DNA of 53,195 nucleotides, from positions 1 through 53,195 of the forward strand of contig JAYSVR010000216.1 in NCBI GenBank assembly GCA_043718445.1. Reading direction: 5' to 3'. Under the pieces are notes generated by a model. That model was not told the origin of the DNA. It saw only the letters and a list, made by a program, of their open reading frames with translations, and searched no databases. Source of the DNA: Acidobacteriota bacterium. GTDB lineage: Bacteria; Acidobacteriota; Blastocatellia; RBC074. Below, piece after piece: positions 36,734 through 51,201 of this stretch; within the stretch, counting starts at the first letter, position 1, and each line of letters opens with the position of its first letter. A program made the translations under genes and the position numbers.

Positions 36734-39700
36734 TTACCACAACAATTTCAAAGCAAACTGAATCTGCCGTGGCGAGTTTGCCTGTCCGGTGATTTGCCCA
36801 AACGTCGTCGAAGTCACGCTCGTGTTCGGCGAGCCAAACCTTGGCGTATTAAACGCATTCAGCGCCTCGACGCGAAATTGCACTTTCATCTTTTCGATAG
36901 CCTGGAATTCTTTGAACACCGAAAGGTCGAAAGCGCGCAGCGCGTCGTTGCGCAAGTTTACCGTAGCCCCTGCGTTGCCGAACGTGAAAGCCGCCGGTTG
37001 GGTATAAACGCTCGTGTCGAAATATTTCGCCAAGCGTTCGTCAACCTTGCCGCTTAGACGCGGGTCATTACCATTCGTATTCGGCCTGGTCAGCGGATTG
37101 AACAAGCCCGCCGTATTATTCGCCGTGATGCTCAACGGCGTACCCGATTGAAACGTAGTGATGCCGTTGAATTGCCAGCCGCCGATCATTGTGTTGACCA
37201 CACTGTGAACGCCGCTGCCAAAACGCCGTCCTTTGCCGAAAGGCAACTCATAGAGATAGCTGACGACAAAACGATGCGCGATGTCTATGTCAGCCAGCGA
37301 GCGGCTTTGCCGAATGTTATAGCTATCCTGATGGTTCAAGCTCTCTTCGATGTTCTTGCCCCAAGTGTAATTGCCGTCAATCATCAGTCCTTTCGCCAGC
37401 CGTTTGCCGAACGTCACTTGCAAGGCGTGGTAGTTCGACGAGTTGCCGCTTGAGTACAACGGAATGATGCTGGTGAATTGCGGATAAGGCCGCAACAACT
37501 GGCCGCGCGCAATCGTCCGCGAAGTGAAAAAGCCGCCCGTACCCAAACCGAAAAACGGATTCGGCACGGCTTGGTTCAACGCTGAACCGAGCGCGAGATG
37601 TTTCGGATCAAGTTGATTTAAATCCAAACCGCCTTCGCCGTTGCGCGAAAGTTGCAAGCCGCGCGTGCCGACATACGCGACTTCCAGATTCACTTGCCAG
37701 GGCAGCGTGCGTTGAACGTTGACGTTCCATTGTTGCGCCCACGGCGTCACGGTGTCTTGCAACACCGATTGCAGGTTGGCTCCGGCTTGGGTCAATAAAC
37801 CGTCAGCCGCGCCTGGCAAGCCGCGAAAGCCGTTCGGATAAGGATTGCGCAACAAATTGACCGGCGTAATGCCGTCGGTCGTCGTTAACCACGGATATTC
37901 GGTGCGGAAGCCGAACGGCCCAACCGTACCCTGCGCCCCCTGGTTCGACGGGCCGAATATGTGCGCATAGCCCGCGCGAATCACCGTCTTGTCATTGAAC
38001 TGATATGCCAGTCCCAAACGCGGCGCGAGGTTGTTGGTGTCTTTGAAATATTGATGGCGCGGGTTGCCATTGACGCCGACGAAAGCTACGCCGCCTTTCA
38101 AGTTGGGGAATTCCGTCTGCCGCGAAGCGAGCGGCGAAACCGCGTTCGGGTCGAAATAATTCATGCGGTTATAACGTTCGGTGCGCGGCGCGTCGTAGTC
38201 ATATCGCAAGCCCAGGTTGAGCGTCAGCTTGCTCGTGATACGCCAATCGTCTTGCACATACCCTGCATAATAAAAACTTTGCGACGCGACGTTCTTCCAG
38301 CCCTGAATCAGCACGTTACCTGTGCCACCCGTGCCGAGCAAAAACGAGGCGAATCCATAACCAGCCGAACTACTCGCCGTATTCGGATTCGGCCCTTGCG
38401 TCATGCCGGCGTTGAAATTGAACTGCCCGGCATTACGCGCTTCCCACACGTTGACGCGAATCAACCGCACTTCGCCGCCATACTTCCAATTGTGTTTGCC
38501 TTGCGAGCGCGTGAGTGTGGCGATAAACGGATAGCTCATAAACGCATTGAAACGATGATCGTTGCCGCCCAAACTGGTTTGTCCGGCGACGCCGACGGCA
38601 GGAAACATCTGACGATCAACTACGCCATCAATCGCGGTAGACAAGCCCAAACTCGAAGGTTTGAAACCCAAACCCTGATTCGAGAATACGAACAACGTAC
38701 GCGCAAAGCCGAGGCGTCCGGTAAAAACCGTCGAAGGCGAAAGCGTGTGCGTATATTCGGCAACAAAGTTACGCGCGCGGTTTTCCTGAATCACGCGGCC
38801 TTCGGCAATCGTGAGGTTTTCAGCGAAAGCCTTGAGCGGCACATCGTTGGTATAACGATGCGAATAGCGCGCAAAGAAGGTTTGCGTCTCAGAGATGCGG
38901 TGATCAATGCGACCATCGAAATTGTCTAGATTGATTTGCGTCGAACCCGAAGCGAGATAGTTATTCGCGCCCGTGCCCGCATCGCCCGGCTGATTCGGGA
39001 GCGGATAAAATTTCATGATGTTCAGCGCTACTGGGTCAAACATTGATACCGGAATCTTGTTTTCCGCAAACTGATCGCGGACGAAGGCCGTGCCGCTCGC
39101 GCGCGTCGTGAACGGATTGAAGACGCGAATCAATGCGCCCGCCTGATTGAATGTTTTAGAGAAATCGCCAGCGCGCTGTTCGACCGTCGGCACCGTGCGC
39201 AACGAACGCGCAAAGCTGCGCGCGCGCAAGCCTTCATACGAACCCATGAAAAATGTTTTGTCTTTGCGAATCGGTCCAGTCGCGTGTCCGCCGAACTGGC
39301 TGCGTTTGAAACTGCCGAGCGGACGACCCGCGCGATTCTCAAACCAGTTGTTCGCGTCGAAAACCGAATTGCGCAAGAACTCATACGCCGAACCGTGCAA
39401 TTGATTCGTACCCGATTTGAAAACTACGTTAAGCACGCTGCCCAGACTGCGACCGAACTCAGCCGGATAAGTCGCGCCCATCACTTTGAATTCCTGAATC
39501 GCGTCAACCGACGGAAAAACCGAAATGCCGGTGAAGCCGTTGACCGTCGGGAACGAAGCCGTCACGCCGTCAATGACTGTATCCATCATCGTCGGACGCG
39601 CGCCGTTCACCGAATAATTCATCTGGTTGTAATTGTTGCCGATGCCACCCGACACGCCCGGCGTCAGGTAAATCAGCGAATAGACGTTGCGCGAGTTGAG

Positions 39701-40144
39701 CGGCAATTCGAGGATGCGTTTGTTGTCTACGACCTTGCCCAGCGCCGAAGTCGTAGTTTCGAGCAAAGGTTGTTGCGAATTGATTTCGACGGTTTCGCTG
39801 ACCGCGCCGACTTCGAGTGCGAAATCCGCAGTCAGGGTTTGTTGCACCTGCAACGTGATGTCGTTGCGGACGGCGCGACGAAAGCCGGTGGCTTTGGCTT
39901 CGAGGCGATAAAGCCCGACAGTCAAAGGCGGCGACGTGTAATAGCCGCTGCCATTCGTCGTCACCGTGAAACTCTGATTGGTTTGCACTTGCGTGATGAT
40001 GATTTCGGCGTTGGCGATAACTTCGCCATTGGCGTTTTTGACGGTGCCGACAAAGGCTCCGGTGAACGATTGCGCTAAGGCGACGTAGCTCATAAAAGCC
40101 AACGCGGCGCAAAGCGATAAAACGAAATGGTGGCGGTGCTTCAT
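36734..40144 (-). CDS. TonB-dependent receptor 3 (Oar-like)
   Basis: Start MKHRHHF at 40144 with GGAGG RBS; LELPLNSRN and DAIQEFKV...PAEFGRS plug motifs; C-terminal [12 protein letters not shown]. Confidence 0.92.
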
Positions 40145-40266
40145 CGAAAACCTCCGGTGATGGTTCCTTGGGAGAACGAATTGTTGTTGTGTCGTAAAGG
40201 TAGTTGTAACGCTGGAAAAATTGCAGCCGAAGTATGCGCCACTCAACTGCGATTCGTCCATACCGC

Positions 40267-40458
40267 CACTTAAGTGAAGCCTGTGCAAATGAAACAATAA
40301 CTTGGGTCGGCGCAGCTTGTGGAGTGCGGCGGCTTTGACGCCGCTTTCCCAAGTCTCCGCGTTGGGCGCGCTCAGGACGGTGTGTGAAAGCGGCGTCAAA
40401 GCCGCGGCGCTTCACAGGCTTCGCCTTTCTCGAATTACGCACAGGCTTCAATTAAGTG
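40267..40458. mobile_element. MITE-like element with 20-bp terminal inverted repeats enclosing a REP-like pair
   Basis: TIRs cacttaagtgaagcctgtgc / gcacaggcttcaattaagtg (19 of 20 match). Internal gcggctttgacgccgcttt / aaagcggcgtcaaagccgc pair. No transposase in the window. Confidence 0.6.
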
Positions 40459-40538
40459 ATTTGATTGCCTGATTTGAGGCATCTGGCTTATTGTGTGCCG
40501 CCTTCAAAAAACGCATTACCATTTCAAAGGAGACCTCG

Positions 40539-41711
40539 ATGAAACATTGCACAATGAGACATTGGCTTTACGCCGTGTTGAGCGGGCTGTTGCTGACCCT
40601 CAACATCCAAGCAACCGAGACCAGCAAAGCCGTCGTCATTTATGACGACAAGGCAACTGACGTGAGCGCAGCCAAGCTGCCCACCGCCAAGCCGAATGAT
40701 TTATGGATCACGTTGGCGGATCTGAAAGCGGCGACCGGATTCGTCAACAAGCCGCAAGGCGTTTGCCGCGAAGAGCTTTGCTTCCCGCTGCCGAAAAAAC
40801 AGCGCGCCGCGTTTTTGCAAACCCAGAGCAAAACGACGTGGTTCAATTTGACGGAGTTCGCGCGCTTGCTCAAACAGCCCGTAGCGCACGACGACGCACT
40901 CGCTACCTGGTATTTCGGACAACGCTCAGAAGTGCAAAACAGCTTCACGCAAAATTTCAAAGCGCCGAATTTCACCTTGCCTGATAAGAACGGCAAGCTG
41001 CATTCGCTGTCAGATTTTCGCGGCAAGAAAGTGCTGATCGTGACGTGGGCTTCGTGGTGAGGTTGCCGTGCTGACCTGCCAGGCTGGCAGACCATTTATA
41101 GCGAACTCAAAAATCAAAACTTCGAAATCATCTCGGTCGCCGAAGACACCGGCGGACTCAAAGCCGCACTGCCGTGGATCGAAGCGGGCAAGGCTGATTA
41201 CACGGTGCTGGTTGACAAGCAACATGTGGTGACGCGCCTTTACGACATGCTTAACGTCCCGACCGCCGTTTGGATCAATGAACAAGGCCGCATCGTGCGT
41301 CCCAACGAAGTCGCTTATTCCAACAACAAAGGGATAGGCATCACCAAAGTTGACACCGAACCGTGGATCAACGGCTTGCGCGATTGGGTCAAGCTCGGCG
41401 ACAAAAGTGCGTTTGCGATGAGCGAAGCCGAGTTGCGAGAACGCTTGAAACCGCAAAATCCTGATTGGGCATTGGCTTCGGCTGAATTCGGTTTGGCCGA
41501 ATATCTTTATCAAACTGATAAAGGCGAAGCTGCGATTCCGCATTACAAAGAAGCGCAACGTCTGAACCCCGAAAGCTGGAATTTCAAGCGGCAGGCGTGG
41601 GCCTTGTCGAGCGCCAAAGACAAATACGGCACATCGTTTAACGACGAAGTGAAGAAGCTGAACGGCAAGCCTTATTACGAACCGCATCGGTTGCCGCCGG
41701 TCAAAAAATAA
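40539..41711 (+). CDS. Selenocysteine-containing thioredoxin-fold (ResA/TlpA-like WAxxUGC) protein with signal peptide, 390 aa
   Basis: ORFs 40491-41060 and 41205-41711 share a frame. Reading through TGA 41058-41060 gives TWASW-U-GCRADLPGWQTIYSELKNQNFEIISVAED with no further stop. AAGGAG RBS before ATG 40539. Confidence 0.9.
41061..41093 (+). promoter_or_regulatory. Bacterial SECIS-like hairpin
   Basis: Stem ctgcca (41076-81) / tggcag (41085-90) with a G-containing loop GGC starting 21 nt after the UGA; lower pairing ggt/acc is possible. Confidence 0.7.
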
Positions 41712-41734: not shown

Positions 41735-41776
41735 AAGGGGCAAAGCATCAACGAGTGCTTTGTCCCTTTCGTTTTT
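41735..41776 (+). terminator. Intrinsic terminator after the selenoprotein gene
   Basis: aaggggcaaagca / tgctttgtccctt stem followed by tcgttttt. Confidence 0.65.
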
Positions 41777-41881
41777 ATTCCCACGCTTTGGTTGAGAATC
41801 GCTTGCACGGTTCGCGCACCGGTCGCTTAAAATGCCTGCGCCTTCGGTGAATGAATTTTTCTTTTTGCGGATAACCAAATC

Positions 41882-44563
41882 ATGACAACTCGATTCAAAC
41901 TAATAGCTGTGTTGACGGCTGCCTTGAGCGGCTGGTGGGCGTTGCATCCGCACACCCCAAACGCGAGCAGTGCGATGGTTCCGCGCGCTTTTCTCGAAGC
42001 CAATTGCTTCGCCTGTCACAACAGCACCAACAAAAAAGCCGGGATCGATCTGACCGCGCTCAAAGACGATTACGCCGACGCGGCGACCTTCGCCACGTGG
42101 GTGAAAGTACATGACCGCGTGTATGAAAACGAAATGCCGCCCAAGCAAGCTCCGCAACCCGACCAGTCAGAACGCGCAGCCTTTCTCAAACAACTCGCGC
42201 AACCAATGATCGCCGCTGACGCCGCGCGCATCCGTCGCGAAGGCCGCGCAGTGTGGCGACGCATGAATCGCTATGAATATGAAAACACCTTGCGCGATTT
42301 GCTCGACGCGCCGTGGTTGCAAGTCAAAGAGATGTTGCCCGAAGACGGTGAAGCCAATCGTTTCAACAAGTCCGGCACGGCGCTCGGCGTCTCGCACGTA
42401 CAAATCAGTCGCTATCTGACGGCGGCGGAATACGCTTTGCGCGAAGTCATCGTGCGTTCAGAAAAACAGCCTGAAGCAATCACCAAACGTTATTACGCCC
42501 GCGAACAGCGCGCTTTCACCGGCCACGTAGAGTTTTCGCAATTCAACACCGCGTCTGAACGCGCTACGTTCCCGCTGCTTGGCAATTCCGCCGATGTCGC
42601 CGTGCTGAAAAAAGAATCACCGATGACCGTCGGCGATAAAGACCCCGCCAAACGCGAACTCGAAAGCATGGGCGTCGTAGCCAGTTCTTATGAACCGCTC
42701 GAAATTCGTTTCAATCAATTCAAAGCCAAAGTGCCAGGCCGTTACAAGCTGCGTTTGAGCGCGCATTCGTTCTGGGCGGGGCCGCAAGCAGGCGAGAAAT
42801 GGTGGCATCCCAGCCGCGATGTCGCTTCAGCCGGTCGCACCCGCGAACCGATTACGCTGTATGCTGAAATCCCGCCGCGCCAGATGCGCTATCTCACCAA
42901 CGTAGACGTGTCGCCCGAACCTTCGGTGCAGGAAGTCGAAGTCTGGTTGCTGAAAGACGAAACGATTCGGCCTGACGCCGTGCGGCTGTTTCGCTCGCGC
43001 CCGCCCAACTGGCGCAATCCGCTGGCCGAGAAAGATGGTCAGCCCGGCGTAGCCTTTCGCTGGCTCGAAGTCGTCGGGCCGATTCACGATCAATGGCCTG
43101 CTAAAGGCCATCGTTTGCTGTTTGGCGAGTTGCCGATTCATTGCAAAGACGCGCTGGCGGGACAGACGTTGCTCGACATCGAAGACGAAGAAACCGCCGT
43201 TGAGCAAGCCGCCCAACGCGCGAAAAATCCCAATCAAAAGCTGACGAAAATTTGTGGCGTGAAATCAAACAACCCACACGCCGATGCTGAAAAGCTATTG
43301 CGCAATTTTTTGCAACGCGCTTATCGCAACCCGCTCGCGCCCGTCATCGAAGAAGACACGCAACGCTTTCTGAAAATTTTTGACGCCGCGCACAAAACCA
43401 GCGGCAGCTTTTCTGAAGCAATGATTACGGCCTATTCCGCCGTGCTGTGTTCGCCCGCGTTCACGACGCTCGAAGAAAAACCCGGACGACTGGACGATCA
43501 CGCGCTGGCTGCGCGCTTGACCTATTTCCTCTGGAATTCAGCACCTGATGCAACCTTGCGCGAACTCGCGCAGCAAGGCGCATTGCGCAAGCCTGTCGTG
43601 TTGCGCACGCAAGTTGATCGCATGCTCAACGATGCCAAGTCGCAACGCTTTGTGAACGCGTTTCTGGATTATTGGCTTGATCTGCGCAAGGTGAATATCA
43701 CTTCGCCGGATGAGTTGCTTTACGCTGATTATTATCTTGATGACCATCTGGTCGAATCTGCCACGCTTGAGACGCGCCAGTTTTTTGCCGAACTCGTGCG
43801 CGGCGATTTGCCTGCGCGCAACGTGATCGCTTCTGATTTTGTCACGATTAACGAAAGGCTCGCGGCGCATTACGGCTTGCCGAATGTGCAAGGCTCACAG
43901 ATTCGCCGCGTTGCGTTGCCGCCCGATTCCATACGCGGCGGATTGCTCACGCAAGCCAGCGTACTCAAAGTCACCGCGAACGGCACGACCACTTCGCCCG
44001 TCGTGCGCGGCGCATGGATGATGGAACGCATCCTCGGCAAACCCGTACCGCCGCCGCCCGCTGGAGTAGCCGCTGTCGAACCGGATGTGCGCGGCGCTAC
44101 GACGATGCGACAGCAACTCGACCAACATCGTAATAACCCAAGCTGCAATGTCTGCCACGCGAAAATTGATCCGGCGGGTTTTGCGCTCGAAAACTTCGAC
44201 GTCTTCGGCGGCTGGCGCGACAAATACCGCGCATTGGCCGAAGGCGAAAAAGCCCAAGGCGTTGGCAAGAACGGACAAAAATTTGCCTTTCGTTATATTC
44301 AACCCGTAGACGCTTCAGGCTCGCTGCCTGATGGTCAGAAGTTTCAAGACGTGCGTGAGTTGAAACGCCTATTGCTCAAAGACGAACGGCAGATTGCGCG
44401 CAACCTGACCACGCAACTCATCGTCTTTGCGACCGGCGCGAGCGTGCAATTCAGCGACCGTCCGAAAGTCGAAGCTCTGCTTGATCGCGCTGCGAGCAAA
44501 GGCTATGGCGTGAAATCACTGATTCAGCTTATTATCGAAAGCGAGTTGTTTCGGAATAAGTAA
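41882..44563 (+). CDS. DUF1592/DUF1588/DUF1587/DUF1585/DUF1595 planctomycete-type cytochrome protein
   Basis: N-terminal CFACH; [16 protein letters not shown]; [14 protein letters not shown]; [25 protein letters not shown]; [17 protein letters not shown]. Confidence 0.92.
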
Positions 44564-44579: not shown

Positions 44580-45179
44580 ATGAGTTACAGCGAATTCACG
44601 ATGGATGACCTGAAGACGAAATTTCATTTGAATTTCGTCCAGGATGAAGCCCTTTTTCCGGTTGTGCCTGAATATCCAATTTCTGCCGAACTGAGAAAGT
44701 ACCTCGTCACTTACGTTCCGTTGGCACTGGCGATAGACACCGAAAAAGCTCGGTCGGAATATATCGTGGCTCAGATTTTGGGTGAGTTAAAGATGAGCCA
44801 TCACGACGACATCAGCCTCTTTTCCGGTATTGAGTTCAATGTGGATAAGGAGCTAGGTTTGGTGGGAAGGTGCGACTACATCATTTCAAGGTCTGGCGAT
44901 CAATATTCGCTCTCAGCACCCATTGTCGTGATGGTAGAAGCCAAGAACGACAATATAAAAAGCGGCATCGCTCAATGCGGTGCGGAAATGCTGGCAGCAC
45001 AGAAATTCAATCAGCAAAAAAAGAATGAAGTGAGTTCTGTGTACGGTTGTGTCTCAACGGGAACCAACTGGAAGTTTCTGAAACTCAACGGAACCGATCT
45101 TTATATTGATGTCGTCGAGTATTACATTGATGCGCCGGAAAAAATCATGGGCATCCTTGCCAGTGTGATGGCGAGTTGA
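44580..45179 (+). CDS. PD-(D/E)XK restriction-endonuclease-like hypothetical protein
   Basis: TEKARSE, G.CDY, VEAK, QC.AEM.AA and YG.V.TG..W.FL pattern (HsdR-N-like fold by motif resemblance). Confidence 0.65.
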   Translation: MSYSEFTMDDLKTKFHLNFVQDEALFPVVPEYPISAELRKYLVTYVPLALAIDTEKARSEYIVAQILGELKMSHHDDISLFSGIEFNVDKELGLVGRCDYIISRSGDQYSLSAPIVVMVEAKNDNIKSGIAQCGAEMLAAQKFNQQKKNEVSSVYGCVSTGTNWKFLKLNGTDLYIDVVEYYIDAPEKIMGILASVMAS

Positions 45180-45204
45180 GACGGCTGCTCATTAACTCAA
45201 TCCG

Positions 45205-46254
45205 ATGAAATTCACCATCGCAAAATTTGTAGTAAGCGCATTGCTCATCACGGCTTGTTTGCTCAGCGTCGTGCCAGCACAGCAAACTGCCACGCAAAAA
45301 TATCTGATTTCAGTCGAGCGCATTTGGGAGCGCGCCCAGCACAATGCGTTCACTGATTTGGTCGAATTCAACGGCAAGCTCTATTGCACCTTTCGCGAAG
45401 GCTCGGCGCATGTGCCCGGCAAAGAAGGCGTGAATGGCACGATTCGTGTGATCGTTTCGGACGATGGGCAAAACTGGCGTTCGGTCGCGTTGCTGGCCGA
45501 AGCGACCTACGATTTGCGCGATCCGAAATTGTCGGTTACGCCCGATGGCCGCTTGATGGTGGTGGCGGGCGGGTCGTATTACGAAGGCGAATCGCGGCTG
45601 CATACCAAGATGTGGGTGACCTTTTCTGACAAGCTCGGCAAATCGTTTGGGCGTGTGCAACCGATGATCTTTGACGAAAAGGCGGCAGCAGTAGCGGGCT
45701 GGCTCTGGCGCGTGACGTGGCATCGCGGCATTGGTTACGGCGTAATGTATAACAGCGCGCCAGACCGCAACGACGCGCTGCTTTTGTCTACGCGGGATGG
45801 CGTGCATTTCCAAACGGTCACGCGGTTTGATTTGCAAGGAGCGCCCAACGAAACCGTGCTGCGCTTTTTGCCAAATGGCAATATGGTCGCGTGGGTGCGA
45901 CGCGACCGCGAATCGCAAAACGGCTTCATCGGCGTCAGCCGCGCGCCTTACACAGAATGGCAATGGAAAGAGCAACCCCGACGCGTCGGCGGGCCAGAAT
46001 TCATCGTCATGCCCAACGGCCAATTGATCGGCGCGGCGCGTTTATATTTGCCCGAAGGGAAAACGCGCACCGCTGTTGTCTCGCTCACGACCGATGGCAA
46101 GCTCGAACCGCTGTTGATGCTGCCCAGCGCCGGAGACAGCAGCTACGCGGGCATGGTCTTGCGCGGCGACAAATTGCTGTTGTCGTATTACGCGAGCCAC
46201 GAAGGCAAGACTTCGATTTATCTGGCTACGCTGAACGCCAAGGCGTTGCAATAG
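45205..46254 (+). CDS. Secreted sialidase/BNR (Asp-box) beta-propeller protein
   Basis: Signal peptide; HNAFTDL, FREG..H, Asp-box SDDGQNW, DLRDPKL, and GDSSY.G. Confidence 0.8.
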   Translation: MKFTIAKFVVSALLITACLLSVVPAQQTATQKYLISVERIWERAQHNAFTDLVEFNGKLYCTFREGSAHVPGKEGVNGTIRVIVSDDGQNWRSVALLAEATYDLRDPKLSVTPDGRLMVVAGGSYYEGESRLHTKMWVTFSDKLGKSFGRVQPMIFDEKAAAVAGWLWRVTWHRGIGYGVMYNSAPDRNDALLLSTRDGVHFQTVTRFDLQGAPNETVLRFLPNGNMVAWVRRDRESQNGFIGVSRAPYTEWQWKEQPRRVGGPEFIVMPNGQLIGAARLYLPEGKTRTAVVSLTTDGKLEPLLMLPSAGDSSYAGMVLRGDKLLLSYYASHEGKTSIYLATLNAKALQ

Positions 46255-46333
46255 TGAGTTATAGGTAAAGAACAAATCTAAGGTATAACGAATAAGTTGA
46301 TAAGTAGTTAAAAATTTCATCGCAGAGGGGAAA

Positions 46334-48130
46334 ATGACTGATATTTGTAAATTTACATCCGTTACATTTCGAAATTATAAAGCACTCAAGCAATACTCTG
46401 TTTCGCTTGACGCCTTTAATGTACTTGTTGGCCCAAACAATTCAGGGAAGTCAACAATCATTAGCGCATTTCGCATTCTTGCAGAAGGTATTAAAAAAGC
46501 AAAATCAAAAAAACCTGAATTCGTAAACCTGATCACTGAAGAATCTTGGGGCTATCGATTATCGCTAGCAGAGTTGCCAATTGCTACAGAAAATATATTT
46601 ACGAATTACGATGACTCCCAACAAGCACTAATAGAGTTTCGACTATCTAATGGCAATAAACTCAGCTTAGTGTTCCCTGAGCAAAATGTTTGTTACTTAA
46701 TATGTAGATCAAATGGTCGAACTGTGAAGTCACCGTCTGACTTTGAACGAGACTATAATGTTAGCGTCGGGTTTGTTCCAGTTTTGGGGCCTGTTGAGCA
46801 TAACGAGCCATTGTACCAAAAAGAAGCTGCAAGATTGGCTTTATTGACACACAGAGCATCAAGGAATTTTAGAAACATTTGGTACCACTATCCTGAGGGA
46901 TTTAATGAGTTTCGTGATTTAATCTCTTCGACTTGGCCCGGGATGGATATTGAACCGCCCACTATTGATCAAACTTCTGATAAGCCTATTCTGCATATGT
47001 TCTGCCCTGAGGAACGATTTCCAAGAGAGATATACTGGGGAGGATTTGGATTTCAAGTCTGGTGTCAGATGCTAACCTATATTGTTAGAGCCAAAAATGA
47101 CTCTATTCTTATCATTGATGAACCAGACATTTACCTACACTCTGATATTCAGAGGCAGCTTGTTAGCATATTAAAGTCTCTCGGCCCCGACATTGTTATT
47201 GCAACTCATTCAACTGAAATTATTTCTGAAGCTGACCCTGGAGATTTACTAATAATAAATAAAAAATCAAGATCTGCAAAAAGGATAAGCGACCTGAGTC
47301 AGCTACAGGCAGTTTTTGGCTTACTTGGGTCAAATCTAAATCCAATTTTGACGCAACTAGCAAAGTCAAAACGTGCAATTTTTGTTGAAGGGAAGGACTT
47401 TCAAATTCTATCTACTTTTGCGCGTATTATGGGGAAGCAATTTGTTGCGAACCGCTCTGATTTTGCGGTAATTCCCACTGACGGATTTAATCCACAAAAA
47501 ATCATTGATTTTTCAAACGGAATGGAGTTGACGCTTGGTGTGCCAATTATGAAGGGCGTAATTCTTGACAGAGACTATAGATCAAATGATGAAATTAAAG
47601 AAATTCATAAAAAACTAAAACAGACCGCTACATTTTCCCATATACACACTAGAAAAGAGCTTGAAAATTATTTATCAGTTCCAAGCACTTTGGACCGCGC
47701 CATAAATAAAAAAATTCTTGAATACAATAAAAGAAATGGGACGCAAATAAAGTTCAGTGAGACGTCAGAACTCATACTTACTTCATTAACTACTCCGCTT
47801 AAAAGCAAAATCAGCGGTCAGTATCTTTCGAAAGGTGCAATCTATGAAAAGCAGAAGGAGCCTGGCCTGGATCAGGCAACCATTACACAAATACTGCTTG
47901 ATAGATTTGAGGAGGCTTGGAGTGATATTGAAAGACGGCTTGAAATAATTCCAGGTAAAGATGTGTTATCCGCACTAAATACATATATTCAGGGACATTA
48001 TAAAGTTACACTCTCGCCAACATTTATAATTAAAGAAATGAGATATACAGAGATCCCGAATGAAATGATTGAGTTAATAGAGAAAATAGAAGCGTTTCGC
48101 CTACAATCGGCTACAAACAGCGATGAATGA
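46334..48130 (+). CDS. OLD-like ATP-dependent nuclease (ABC-type ATPase + TOPRIM), low GC
   Basis: Walker A GPNNSGKS, Walker B LIIDEPD, H-loop IATHS, TOPRIM FVEGKD and LDRD, and ELENY. One 60-nt spot count gave about 28% GC. Confidence 0.8.
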   Translation: MTDICKFTSVTFRNYKALKQYSVSLDAFNVLVGPNNSGKSTIISAFRILAEGIKKAKSKKPEFVNLITEESWGYRLSLAELPIATENIFTNYDDSQQALIEFRLSNGNKLSLVFPEQNVCYLICRSNGRTVKSPSDFERDYNVSVGFVPVLGPVEHNEPLYQKEAARLALLTHRASRNFRNIWYHYPEGFNEFRDLISSTWPGMDIEPPTIDQTSDKPILHMFCPEERFPREIYWGGFGFQVWCQMLTYIVRAKNDSILIIDEPDIYLHSDIQRQLVSILKSLGPDIVIATHSTEIISEADPGDLLIINKKSRSAKRISDLSQLQAVFGLLGSNLNPILTQLAKSKRAIFVEGKDFQILSTFARIMGKQFVANRSDFAVIPTDGFNPQKIIDFSNGMELTLGVPIMKGVILDRDYRSNDEIKEIHKKLKQTATFSHIHTRKELENYLSVPSTLDRAINKKILEYNKRNGTQIKFSETSELILTSLTTPLKSKISGQYLSKGAIYEKQKEPGLDQATITQILLDRFEEAWSDIERRLEIIPGKDVLSALNTYIQGHYKVTLSPTFIIKEMRYTEIPNEMIELIEKIEAFRLQSATNSDE

Positions 48131-48213
48131 CTTAAATATTTAAGTAGCTCGTATTATGTACACTTCTGAGCTTCAACCAAATTTACTCCGGTAAACATCA
48201 GGAAATTTAATTT

Positions 48214-48301
48214 ATGAAAGCACTCAACATTTCAACCCAAACTGAGCTTTCTCGCCGCAGCTTTTTTGCGCAAAGCCGGTGTCGCGTTCAGCTTGCCGTT
48301 G
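48214..48301 (+). pseudogene. Frameshifted, diverged copy of the first 29 codons of the DUF1552 gene
   Basis: Aligns to 49885-49971 with 69 of 87 identities (manual count) plus one extra T. Reads [29 protein letters not shown] versus [29 protein letters not shown]. Confidence 0.85.
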
Positions 48302-48342
48302 AGCAAGGTTAATCCGGTAAATTAAATATAAGGGAGATTCCC

Positions 48343-49362
48343 ATGCTGCCCCATCTCATCAACTACAGTCCAATTCGCACCCTCATACTTTTGGCCCTCG
48401 TCTGCGGCATGATTGCTATAGGCGTCGTCCAAGCTCAGAAAGCAAAAGGCAGCCGCACTGTCTATCTGCTTACCCGCGACGGCAAGGTGTTGGTGGGTAG
48501 ACTTTCCACAGGCGGCTTCACGGTGAACGAAAGCCCCTCCCGCTCCGTGGGGGTTGAGACAGTGCTTTCGATCAATCTTGGGCAAGAGGCAAGCCCGTAT
48601 GAAGCAGCGCGCATCACCGCCGATCTGGCCGCCGTTCAGGGCACCGACCGGCAGGCGCGTGACGCAGCGGTGGCGGAGTTGACCGACATCGGGCTGCCAG
48701 CATTCACGCCTGTACTCAACGCCTACAAAGATCGTGACCTGCGCGAGCCGGACGCGCTCTATCGCCTCTTCGCTCGCTTGATGCCCGGCTATGCTGACGC
48801 GTCAGATCGCTCGCTTGATCTGATTCGGCTGAAAAATGGCGACGCCTTGCGCGGTAGGCTGGGAATATCATCGCTCACGATTCAGCCGACGGGCGGGGCG
48901 GCGATGAAGGTTTCGCTCGCTGAGCTTCGTTCGCTGGCGATACGGCAGAACGTGATCGAGAAAACTTTTGACGTGCATGCGCTCAGGCACTGCACCCAGA
49001 TCGAATTCCTCGACACCGGCGTCATCATTGGCCCCAACTCGCGCGTCGAAGCGACCGCCGCCGGATATGTGCGCCTCTCCTTCGCCATTGATGGCTGGGC
49101 CGCTGATCCCGATGGAATCAAAGTACCGGGGCCGAATTACAAGACGAATCTGGTGGATGGCTTTCCCTTTGGCGCACTGGTCGGCAAGGTCGGCGTCGCC
49201 GCGCCGCGCTTCATCGTAGGGCGTCGGCTGGACAAAACCGGTTTGGGTGAAGGCCGCCTTTATCTCGCCGTCAACGACAACGGACATTGGCAAAACAACA
49301 TCGGCAGCTTTCGCGTGAAGCTGCGCGTGAGAGATGCTTATGACGTGGGCGATCCGCAGTAG
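48343..49362 (+). CDS. Exported hypothetical protein with C-terminal LecA/PA-IL-like beta-sandwich
   Basis: GGGAG RBS; signal peptide; DTGV......V...A.G, GALVGKVG....F.VG and GRLYLAVND.....N.GSFRV pattern. Confidence 0.6.
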   Translation: MLPHLINYSPIRTLILLALVCGMIAIGVVQAQKAKGSRTVYLLTRDGKVLVGRLSTGGFTVNESPSRSVGVETVLSINLGQEASPYEAARITADLAAVQGTDRQARDAAVAELTDIGLPAFTPVLNAYKDRDLREPDALYRLFARLMPGYADASDRSLDLIRLKNGDALRGRLGISSLTIQPTGGAAMKVSLAELRSLAIRQNVIEKTFDVHALRHCTQIEFLDTGVIIGPNSRVEATAAGYVRLSFAIDGWAADPDGIKVPGPNYKTNLVDGFPFGALVGKVGVAAPRFIVGRRLDKTGLGEGRLYLAVNDNGHWQNNIGSFRVKLRVRDAYDVGDPQ

Positions 49363-49621: not shown

Positions 49622-49861
49622 ATGAACAAGATCAAGTTATTTGATGTCGTCGCTTTGACGGAAGACCTGCCGAAATACAAGTTGCGGCGTGGCGAAATCG
49701 GCGCGGTCGTCGAAGTTCATCCAACCGGCAGCTATGAAGTCGAGTTTGTTTCACAAGATGGACACACTTACGCTTTGATCGCAGCCAAGAAAGAGCAACT
49801 CATCGCGCTAAGACAGAAACCACTGCATACGACCCGCAAATTAGTTCCTGCGGCATTGTGA
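49622..49861 (+). CDS. DUF4926 domain protein
   Basis: [14 protein letters not shown]...L.RGEIG.VVEV.....YEVEF....G.TYA; GAGG RBS. Confidence 0.85.
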
Positions 49862-49884
49862 TTAACAGAAAGAGGATTCACCAC

Positions 49885-51201
49885 ATGAAGACCATTCACA
49901 TCTCAACTCAAACCGCCCTCTCTCGCCGCAGCTTCTTGCGCGGAACCGGTGTCGCGCTCGGCTTGCCGTTGCTCGACGCGATGCTGCCTGCGTTTGCGCG
50001 CGCCGACAGCAAAGCCCAAGTGCCGCGCCGCTTCCTGGCGATTTGCAACAACCTCGGCGTGCTGCCGTCGAAGTTTTTTCCGGCGGCGGATTCCAAAGGC
50101 TTCGGCTATCAACTTTCGCCTTACCTCGAAGAATTGCGCGCGCATCGCAATGAATTCACGGTCTTCAGCGGCGTTTGGCATCCTGACGTAGACGCGGGGC
50201 ATCCGGCAGACAATTGCTTTTTGACTGCCGCGCCGCACCCCAGCAGCGGAGGCTTTCGCAATACGATCTCACTCGATCAATTCGCGGCGGAACACATCGG
50301 CAATCAAACGCGCTTTCCTTCGCTCACGCTCGGCGTCAATATTCAGCAAGGTCAGCACAGCCTTTCGTGGACGAGCGGCGGCGTGTTGATTCCGTCAGAA
50401 GAAAAACCTTCCGAAATTTTCAAACGCATGTTCGTCACCGGCACGCCCGCTGAAGTCGAGGCGCAAATGCGCCGTCTGGCGTTGGGGCAAAGCGTGATGG
50501 ATTCGGTCGCCCAACAAACAACTCGGCTGCAAAAAAATATCGGCCCACGCGACCGCGAACGGTTGGATCAATACATGACTGGTGTGCGCGATCTTGAAAA
50601 ACGTTTGGGGCAAGCCGCCGAATGGGAGCAGAAACCCAAACCCGTCGTCAGCGCGCAATGTCCGACAGACACCGCTGCGCCGCGTGATTATTTTGAAAAG
50701 GTGAGATTGATGTATGACCTTGCCGCGCTGGCGTTTGAAACCGACTCGACACGGATCGTCGCGTTGATGCTCGACAGCGTGAATTCGCCCGCGATTACGA
50801 TTGGCGACGAGACAATGGCGGATAGTTATCACGCGATTTCGCATCACGGCAGGAAGCCTGAAAAATTGCGGCAGCACGAAATCGCCGACCGCATGCAAAT
50901 GAAGGCGCTCGATAAACTGTTCACCGATTTGAAAGCGCGCAAAGAAGGCAATGACACGCTGATGGATCGCACGATGGTGTTATACGGCACGAACATGGGT
51001 GACGCGAATACGCATGTGACGACGAACCTGCCGACGTTGTTTGCGGGCGGCGGATTCAAGCACGGACAGCATCTGGGCTTTGACCGCGAACGCAATTACC
51101 CACTGCCGAATCTGTTTGTGAATGTATTGCAACGGTTGGGCATCGAAGCTGATAAGTTTGCGACCAGCACCGGTACGATGCGCGGGCTTGAGGTGGCGTA
51201 A
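49885..51201 (+). CDS. DUF1552 (HXXSHH) domain Tat-exported protein
   Basis: [19 protein letters not shown]; ISLDQ.AA; LAF.TD.TR; YHAISHH; H...NLP...AGG. ATG 49885 with GAGGA RBS. Confidence 0.92.

Follow-up and report, generated by a model that had tools for sequence, protein, structure and literature searches.

The question raised by this locus is whether an in-frame TGA that divides a thioredoxin-fold gene is a stop codon or a selenocysteine (Sec) codon, and what the uninterrupted product would do. The gene lies at positions 40539-41711 of the forward strand of contig JAYSVR010000216.1 (GCA_043718445.1), from an Acidobacteriota bacterium (Blastocatellia, RBC074). The window, as the term is used below, is the whole stretch of DNA analysed, positions 1-53,195 of that contig. 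An initial annotation of the window had read the gene as a hidden selenoprotein, and this is borne out by the Sec machinery of the genome, the conservation of the TGA, the Cys aligned with it in homologs, and a downstream hairpin of the selenocysteine insertion sequence (SECIS) type. We consider it highly probable that 40539-41711 encodes one 390-residue ResA-like WAxxUGC selenoprotein, whose UGA at 41058-41060 is decoded with the hairpin at 41076-41090 and the organism's own SelA, SelB, SelD and tRNA-Sec, and that this stand-alone gene yields an exported periplasmic selenol/thiol-disulfide oxidoreductase. By comparative evidence, the UGA is a Sec codon and residue 174 occupies the position of the first Cys of the active site; a periplasmic selenol/thiol-disulfide oxidoreductase is the most likely role.

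Reading frame, in-frame TGA and SECIS hairpin

The elements on which the decoding of the gene depends are the following.

40539-41711, + strand: complete selenoprotein coding sequence with Sec at codon 174 (reading frame, NF041054 match, dN/dS)
41058-41060, + strand: UGA for selenocysteine U174, which stands in place of the nucleophilic N-terminal Cys of CxxC (TGA/Cys comparison)
41064-41066, + strand: TGC, Cys176, the partner of U174 in U-G-C (column C176 invariant; alignment to 3kcm)
41076-41090, + strand: SECIS apical hairpin, 15 nt downstream of the UGA, with stem CUGCC/GGCAG and loop AGGCU (RNAalifold, covariation, constraints of the bacterial SECIS (bSECIS) model)
40526-40532, + strand: Shine-Dalgarno-like AAAGGAG, 6 nt upstream of the ATG at 40539 (read from the sequence)

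Direct translation of 40539-41711 gives a single frame of 390 codons followed by TAA at 41709-41711. The frame contains only one TGA, at codon 174, in the context WASW-TGA-GGT-TGC (41046-41066), and the read-through product of 390 residues runs ...KKVLIVTWASW-U-GCRADLPGWQ... across it. When read with table 11, the gene falls into two open reading frames (ORFs), 40491-41060 and 41205-41711, and translation confirmed the split at the TGA, with the frame open beyond, that the initial annotation had described. Residue 174 lies inside the stretch matched by Pfam AhpC-TSA and Redoxin (residues 141-255). Contigs from four sequencing runs cover 41058-41060, of which X1 and X2 are identical and X3 and X4 belong to a related strain with 8-11 differences. 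None of the variants listed (40 of 68) falls on the TGA, so that the check for an assembly error, in which TGC or TGT would stand in place of TGA, came out in favour of the codon as read.

The TGA is conserved in the orthologous loci. Orthologs are present in 21 of 41 related genomes (24 loci) and in 18 of 301 evenly sampled genomes of the phylum, with exactly one TGA per match in both sets. The pattern W-x3-TGA-x-C is retained in one frame at all 34 orthologous loci read, a set that includes one locus from an unpublished genome (L032, genome G008) and becomes 33 of 33 when it is left out. A scan with one genome per species returned 574 relatives among 601 pattern matches, and the TGA stands at the Sec column in all 80 loci kept from it, some of which overlap the 34-locus set.

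Cys homologs are also found, as was anticipated from the first-Cys site of TlpA and ResA redoxins. The best 120 matches of the protein search comprise 73 full-length sequences (~345-440 residues) and 47 short ones. All 73 full-length homologs, which include records named Planctomycetia, Pirellulales and Sumerlaeota, read WASW-C-x-C with Cys at the Sec column. Of the short matches, 46 start at or next to LPGWQ, with ~214 residues; they start just past the TGA and are therefore gene-caller fragments. In a quick maximum-likelihood tree, the 34 Sec forms and the 73 Cys forms are interleaved, which requires at least six Sec/Cys changes, two of them forced by well-supported branches. Two Cys forms (P0002 and P0003) nest within the Sec clade of the window protein with a support of 99.

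The reading of the TGA as a true stop, arising from a nonsense mutation, a pseudogene or an assembly error, would leave only a 173-residue N-terminal product or nothing. It is in keeping with the division of the gene under table 11 and with the public gene calls, which split likewise to give the 46 fragments among the best 120 matches. The same-codon TGA in the 34 and 80 loci and the Cys at this column in 73 homologs argue the other way, as do the covariation of the hairpin and the complete Sec machinery of the genome, which are discussed below. Moreover, dN/dS against three close relatives is 0.049-0.067 after the TGA and 0.034-0.074 before it, which indicates strong purifying selection downstream of the codon. 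The conserved TGA, the Cys homologs and this selection together exclude a nonsense mutation, a pseudogene or an assembly error for practical purposes, and we assign the true-stop reading a negligible probability.

The genome of the window (G000; 7.7 Mb, 642 contigs, 91.7% complete) encodes all four Sec components, selA, selB, selC and selD, for which the initial annotation had proposed a search. Profile searches identified selA at 459.5 bits and selB at 349.4 bits, above the cut-off of 242. The selD is of Sec type (357.3 bits), with one in-frame TGA in the context CAG-U-ASKL. The tRNA-Sec scores 67.7 bits with the Rfam model, relative to a gathering score of 47, and is called by ARAGORN as tRNA-SeC with anticodon tca.

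Two observations concern other Sec loci of this genome. The selD gene (G000:C608, locus L011) is itself a selenoprotein gene, in which CAG-TGA-ASKL is followed, ~27 nt after the UGA, by a 7-bp hairpin, CGCUCAG-GUU-CUGAGCG. A second candidate for an exported thioredoxin-fold selenoprotein (G000:C104, locus L162, contig positions 700-2400) consists of 218 codons, encodes a hydrophobic N-terminus and carries FYRGYW-TGA-PWC (UxxC); it matches the known UxxC kind of peroxiredoxin (Prx)-like selenoproteins.

The presence of a hairpin with a G-containing loop 3' of the UGA was borne out, and its constraints and compensatory changes are of SECIS type. The bSECIS model, as described in PMC13188914, allows a loop of 3-9 nt with a G in its first two positions, a stem of 4-16 bp, a UGA-to-loop distance of 16-37 nt and a minimum free energy (MFE) of -7.5 kcal/mol or lower. 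The hairpin at 41076-41090 lies within all of these limits, with a loop of 5 nt that includes the G, a stem of 5 bp and 20 nt between UGA and loop. The MFE is -8.6 kcal/mol in a 30-nt segment, -17.6 in a 60-nt segment that folds with the same apex, and -7.1 for the bare 15-mer. The loop, A-GGC-U, fits the pattern N1-G-[G/U]-N-N2, and the selD gene of the same genome carries a similar CAGGUUCUG apex.

The RNAalifold consensus over orthologs contains the same five pairs. Among 33 distinct sequences, the first pair is CG in 28 and UA in four, with one mismatch, whereas the sixth position below the stem is UA in 11, CG in 10, GC in two and unpaired in 10, the window among the latter. The covariation score was reached by none of 500 shuffles, and slid registers pair far less often. 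Similar changes are observed in the 80 further loci, whose sequences are related and do not count as independent events: the first pair is CG in 58, UA in 20, UG in one and CA in one, the fourth is CG in 70 and UG in 10, and each core pair is intact in 79-80 of the 80. Of the two G's in the loop, one is present in all 80 of these loci and the other in 79. LPGWQ, the peptide encoded by the hairpin, occurs in 31 of the 34 Sec forms but in only 17 of the 73 Cys forms, as predicted for an RNA constraint that acts on Sec forms only.

Family, domain architecture and targeting

The ResA-like WAxxUGC family that the initial annotation had invoked exists as NCBIfam NF041054, "ResA-like WAxxUGC motif-containing protein" (WAxxUGC_long), an equivalog model of 354 positions whose curated threshold is 300 bits. 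The read-through product, scored with C in place of U, matches it at E 2.3e-88 and 296.9 bits over model positions 7-205 and 233-351. The W-A-x-x-U-G-C motif with its in-frame TGA is present, and the long architecture (N-domain, thioredoxin domain and C-terminal helices) is matched over the whole length, with abundant Cys homologs. Orthologs of the same genus score 303.6-311.7 and those of the same family 301-319, all above the cut-off, and the window protein groups with these orthologs in the quick tree.

The family is represented in the selenoproteome literature as well. Zhang and Gladyshev (2008, PMC2398784) list a "Prx-like (UGC-containing)" entry with pfam00578, the motif UGC, 46 Sec sequences and 855 Cys homologs, and report it as more abundant in non-marine samples; one UXC Prx-like sequence was already listed in 2005 (PMC1088965). 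From motif and domain, these published entries and NF041054 appear to be one family. The term "WAxxUGC" was not found in the literature searched, and "UGC" is absent from the main text of Peng 2016, whose supplementary tables may list the family. The window gene is thus an ordinary member of a family already catalogued by NCBI and in the selenoproteome literature, and it is not new. The U-G-C spacing, the C-x4-C N-domain and the TPR-like tail, which had been taken as unusual, are indeed present, but they are regular features of the WAxxUGC family: the match spans NF041054 positions 7-351, and both motifs occur in all relatives examined. By record titles, the family is widespread in Blastocatellia-type Acidobacteriota, with Cys counterparts in Planctomycetes-named records.

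We also note that several close orthologs (60-85% identical; loci L085, L089, L108-L110, L122, L134, L138, L153 and L161) stand in public metagenome-assembled genome records titled Heliomicrobium, Heliobacteriaceae or Clostridia. These titles look like mislabelled taxonomy, because the nearest relatives are titled Blastocatellia or Acidobacteriota.

The protein is composed of the following parts, which were delimited on an AlphaFold2 model of the full sequence (61 sequences; mean pLDDT 89, pTM 0.84) and by profile matches.

40539-40613, + strand: predicted Sec-type (signal peptidase I) signal peptide, MKHCTMRHWLYAVLSGLLLTLNIQA (basic N-terminus, hydrophobic core and I-Q-A site, by inspection)
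40617-40928, + strand: N-terminal alpha/beta domain, ~residues 27-130, with the beta-hairpin C76-x4-C81 (AlphaFold2 pLDDT 91.5)
40764-40766 and 40779-40781, + strand: codons of C76 and C81, the invariant beta-hairpin Cys pair
40959-41303, + strand: thioredoxin-fold (ResA/TlpA-like) catalytic domain, residues 141-255 (Pfam AhpC-TSA 67.9 bits, Redoxin 56.6 bits)
41358-41654, + strand: C-terminal helical region, residues 274-372 (DSSP helices of the AlphaFold2 model)
41478-41573, + strand: TPR-like helix pair, residues 314-345 (Pfam TPR_1 below cut-off; match to consensus TPR designs)

The central domain has the thioredoxin fold of ResA/TlpA type that was expected of it. Its top Foldseek matches are ResA (E 2.5e-11), DsbE and TlpA, and profile matches to 3kcm, ResA and TlpA in the PDB range from E 4e-23 to 2e-17. 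The alignment to 3kcm sets WAsWCg-Cr against WATWCPpCR with a gap of one residue; the C/U-x-C of the family thus corresponds to CxxC with one residue fewer. The predicted C-terminal helix pair is present as well, although its resemblance to TPR is weak: TPR_1 is matched at E 0.011 and 15.9 bits, below the cut-off of 27.8, while profile positions 305-340 match consensus TPR designs.

The additional N-domain with GVCREELCFP, which had been noted in the first reading, is part of the read-through protein. Its hairpin, G-x-C-x4-C-x-P, has G, both C and P invariant in all 34 loci, and C-x4-C recurs in 72 of 73 Cys-form homologs, with C-x5-C in the remaining one. The N-domain has no Foldseek match in the PDB at E<=0.001. 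VIA-align gave a best Z of 6.5 to 5h3k, a hypothetical protein, followed by usher N-domains at Z 4.4-4.8; no fold is assigned, because these scores lie within the stated noise of the tool, and a DsbD-N-like relay domain is likewise not supported by structure matches of this level. A profile search with the N-domain returned mostly N-terminal halves of the same family. In one database protein, P0154 (296 residues), a Peptidase_M50 region is joined to the N-domain, followed by 33 residues from the start of the Redoxin domain, and the sequence ends at the would-be TGA; it may be a real fusion or a gene-call artefact.

The hairpin motif itself has a wider occurrence. F-x-I-x-P-D/N-G-x-C-x4-C-T recurs 7-20 times, at a spacing of 84 residues, in giant proteins of 811-2822 residues (P0149, P0162, P0200, P0210 and P0238) that carry Ig-like, beta-helix, lectin and carbohydrate-binding domains. 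This suggests that the motif may be a common disulfide-stapled beta-hairpin module.

A Sec-type signal peptide had been read from the hydrophobic N-terminus ending ...LNIQA. This N-terminus is present, and its composition, with TE following the listed peptide and a hydropathy maximum of 2.31, is that expected of a signal peptidase I signal. Inspection of the 34 orthologs found a similar hydrophobic N-terminus in most of them, a lipobox-like ...A-C N-terminus in five (L058-L062) and a twin-arginine-like RRDFL in one (L057). U-G-C and C-x4-C are kept in all orthologs, whatever their predicted targeting.

Proposed chemistry and alternative readings

The nearest well-known relatives are ResA, TlpA and CcmG (DsbE), grouped in cd02966, with which the window protein shares the thioredoxin fold, the W-A-S-W lead-in, the V-P loop and the predicted extracytoplasmic location. 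It differs from them in having Sec for the first Cys and U-G-C rather than C-x-x-C, in its extra N-terminal domain and TPR-like tail, and in not lying beside cytochrome maturation or assembly genes. The window protein probably works like ResA/TlpA/CcmG but is not a canonical member of the group. The pairing of two redox residues one residue apart, in many cases with Gly between them, is also found in CxC redox sites, including those of MauE and Sep15. In eukaryotic Sep15 the motif is C-x-U, with Sec as the second residue of the pair; in the window protein Sec is the first, and Sep15 is not homologous to it in the added domains. MauE is a membrane protein without the thioredoxin fold and is again not homologous to the added domains; its CXC is described as required for disulfide-forming activity (bioRxiv 10.64898/2026.03.05.709764). 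The Prx-like thiol:disulfide oxidoreductase selenoproteins of UxxC type (PF00578), as presented in PMC13188914, are likewise exported thioredoxin-fold proteins with Sec at the first active-site position, but they have UxxC spacing and a single domain of ~200 residues, unlike the window protein.

On the reading that we prefer, the predicted signal peptide would export the protein to act in the periplasm. There, the selenolate of Sec174, which corresponds in position to the exposed nucleophilic residue in TlpA, ResA and CcmG, would attack a substrate disulfide or other oxidised sulfur, and Cys176 would resolve the Se-S adduct to give a strained intramolecular selenenylsulfide. A partner would recycle the selenenylsulfide, and the genome encodes a membrane protein of CcdA/DsbD type (DsbD_TM/CcdA match of 111.7 bits). 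Binding of the substrate or of a partner is probably the task of the N-domain and the TPR-like tail. With at least 15 other TlpA-like matches in the genome, the window protein would represent a specialised member of this paralogous set. Compared with the ring of CxxC, that of C-x-C is strained and has a more oxidising character, so an oxidase or isomerase direction is possible; Sec, as the better nucleophile and better leaving group, would offset the oxidising ring.

A different chemistry, in which Sec174 would be converted to a selenenic acid by hydroperoxide and resolved by Cys176, as in Prx or glutathione peroxidase (GPx), is unlikely but carries the most weight among the alternatives. The best Pfam match is AhpC-TSA, at 67.9 bits vs a cut-off of 26, and a GSHPx (PF00255) match covers residues 145-199, although at 23.9 it stays under the Pfam gathering score of 27. 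The local A-S-x-U-G string resembles the active-site string of GPx. The literature name "Prx-like (UGC-containing)" (PMC2398784) points in the same direction. The peroxidatic motif of AhpC/TSA peroxiredoxins, given as P-x3-T-x2-C in PMC13188914, is however absent, with Ala171 at -3 and Ile167 at -7. By both sequence and fold, the nearest solved relatives are ResA, TlpA and DsbE, not peroxiredoxins. V240-P241, which occupies the site of the cis-Pro loop of thiol-disulfide oxidoreductases, is invariant.

It is less probable that C76-x4-C81 is an additional redox or metal(loid) centre acting jointly with U-G-C; in that case the protein would be an exported selenoenzyme complete in itself, with a relay between Se and S inside the molecule. 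A functional role of C76 and C81 would fit the fact that both are also retained by the six orthologs without a signal peptide. The 84-residue repeats of the hairpin motif in giant surface proteins point instead to a structural disulfide. We give still less credence to a metal- or metalloid-binding function (e.g. Cu, Hg or As) of U-G-C, possibly together with C-x4-C, in a chaperone or detoxifier. The four invariant Cys/Sec residues, accompanied by invariant H229, D179, E248 and E257, would suit such a role, and TlpA-type proteins service copper sites; 4txo and 4txv, structures of mixed disulfides that involve ScoI and CoxB, are among the matches. UxC and CxC motifs do occur in metal-handling proteins, and a UxC Cu/Zn efflux transporter family is listed in PMC13188914. 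In the stretches from relatives, the gene is not accompanied by conserved genes for metal resistance or copper, which argues against this function.

Several results weigh against the assignment of the gene as a decoded and exported member of the WAxxUGC family. Among the sequencing runs searched for the stretch, no RNA run covers 40539-41711. The NF041054 score of the window protein lies 3 bits below the cut-off (296.9 vs 300), and a six-frame search gave 194.2 and 96.3. The fold energy of 41050-41120 (71 nt) is no better than that of shuffles (z = -1.05; 33 of 200 shuffles are equally or more stable), and the hairpin of the window has just five pairs, its sixth position being a C-A mismatch. 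The hairpin is within bSECIS limits, and with a fold energy of the region no different from that of shuffles, the argument for it comes from covariation instead. Export is predicted by inspection and a hydropathy scan only, and inspection found no hydrophobic N-terminus in six of the 34 orthologs (L036, L051, L053, L054, L055 and L056), which means that a periplasmic location does not extend to the whole family. Finally, the catalytic direction may be that of a reductase, an oxidase/isomerase or a peroxidase, and the ring, shorter by one residue, is expected to be more oxidising than that of CxxC.

Genomic neighbourhood and annotation

The gene is flanked upstream by a divergent gene of the TonB-dependent-receptor type (36734-40399, - strand) and downstream by a PSCyt1/PSD3/PSD5/PSD4/PSCyt3/PSD2 ("DUF1592") gene (41882-44563, + strand). 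One further element lies between the gene and the DUF1592 gene.

41735-41778, + strand: terminator-like hairpin with a 14-bp stem and a T-rich tail (stem length and position alone; the scan counted three such hairpins in total, no higher than the 2.9 in shuffles)

The neighbourhood was compared by tblastn of 13 window neighbours against stretches of 12-20 kb from 16 relatives and by all-against-all clustering of 270 ORFs. The neighbours of the window are shared by only one of the 16 relatives, which is of the same genus (G006) and has a protein 95% identical. No gene family recurs beside the gene in these 16 stretches, except pieces of the gene itself, and no cytochrome c maturation or cytochrome oxidase assembly genes adjoin it in the window. 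A DUF1592/DUF1552 pair lies 5 kb away in one relative (G199) and a PSCyt2/PSD1 gene 4 kb away in another (G021). The initial annotation had suggested that the protein might serve the DUF1592 protein or the divergent receptor operon; this suggestion is not sustained by neighbours common to one of 16 relatives and by a terminator-like hairpin that separates the gene from DUF1592. The gene would accordingly act on its own and not as part of the DUF1592 or receptor units.

Standard gene callers cut the gene in two, and the 46 C-terminal halves among the best 120 matches are named "hypothetical" or "TPR repeat protein". The N-terminal halves show the same effect, in that 57 of 149 representatives in the N-domain search end at WASW-like strings. 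The window copy lies just under the NF041054 cut-off, so it may go unnamed. The SECIS covariation, the repeated Sec/Cys exchange, the three export types and the lack of conserved neighbours narrow the experimental targets and reveal no new kind of system. The questions of substrate, catalytic direction and the N-domain Cys pair are family-wide and not peculiar to the window locus.

A minor observation concerns the DUF1592-type gene (41882-44563) and a DUF1552 (HXXSHH) gene (49858-51201), which are ~4.8 kb apart in the window and side by side in G199. The gap, 44580-49362, holds four ORFs, three without a Pfam match and one AAA_21/AAA_15 ATPase (46334-48130), and looks like an inserted defence-type cassette. 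The same-genus relative G006 shares at least the start of this insert.

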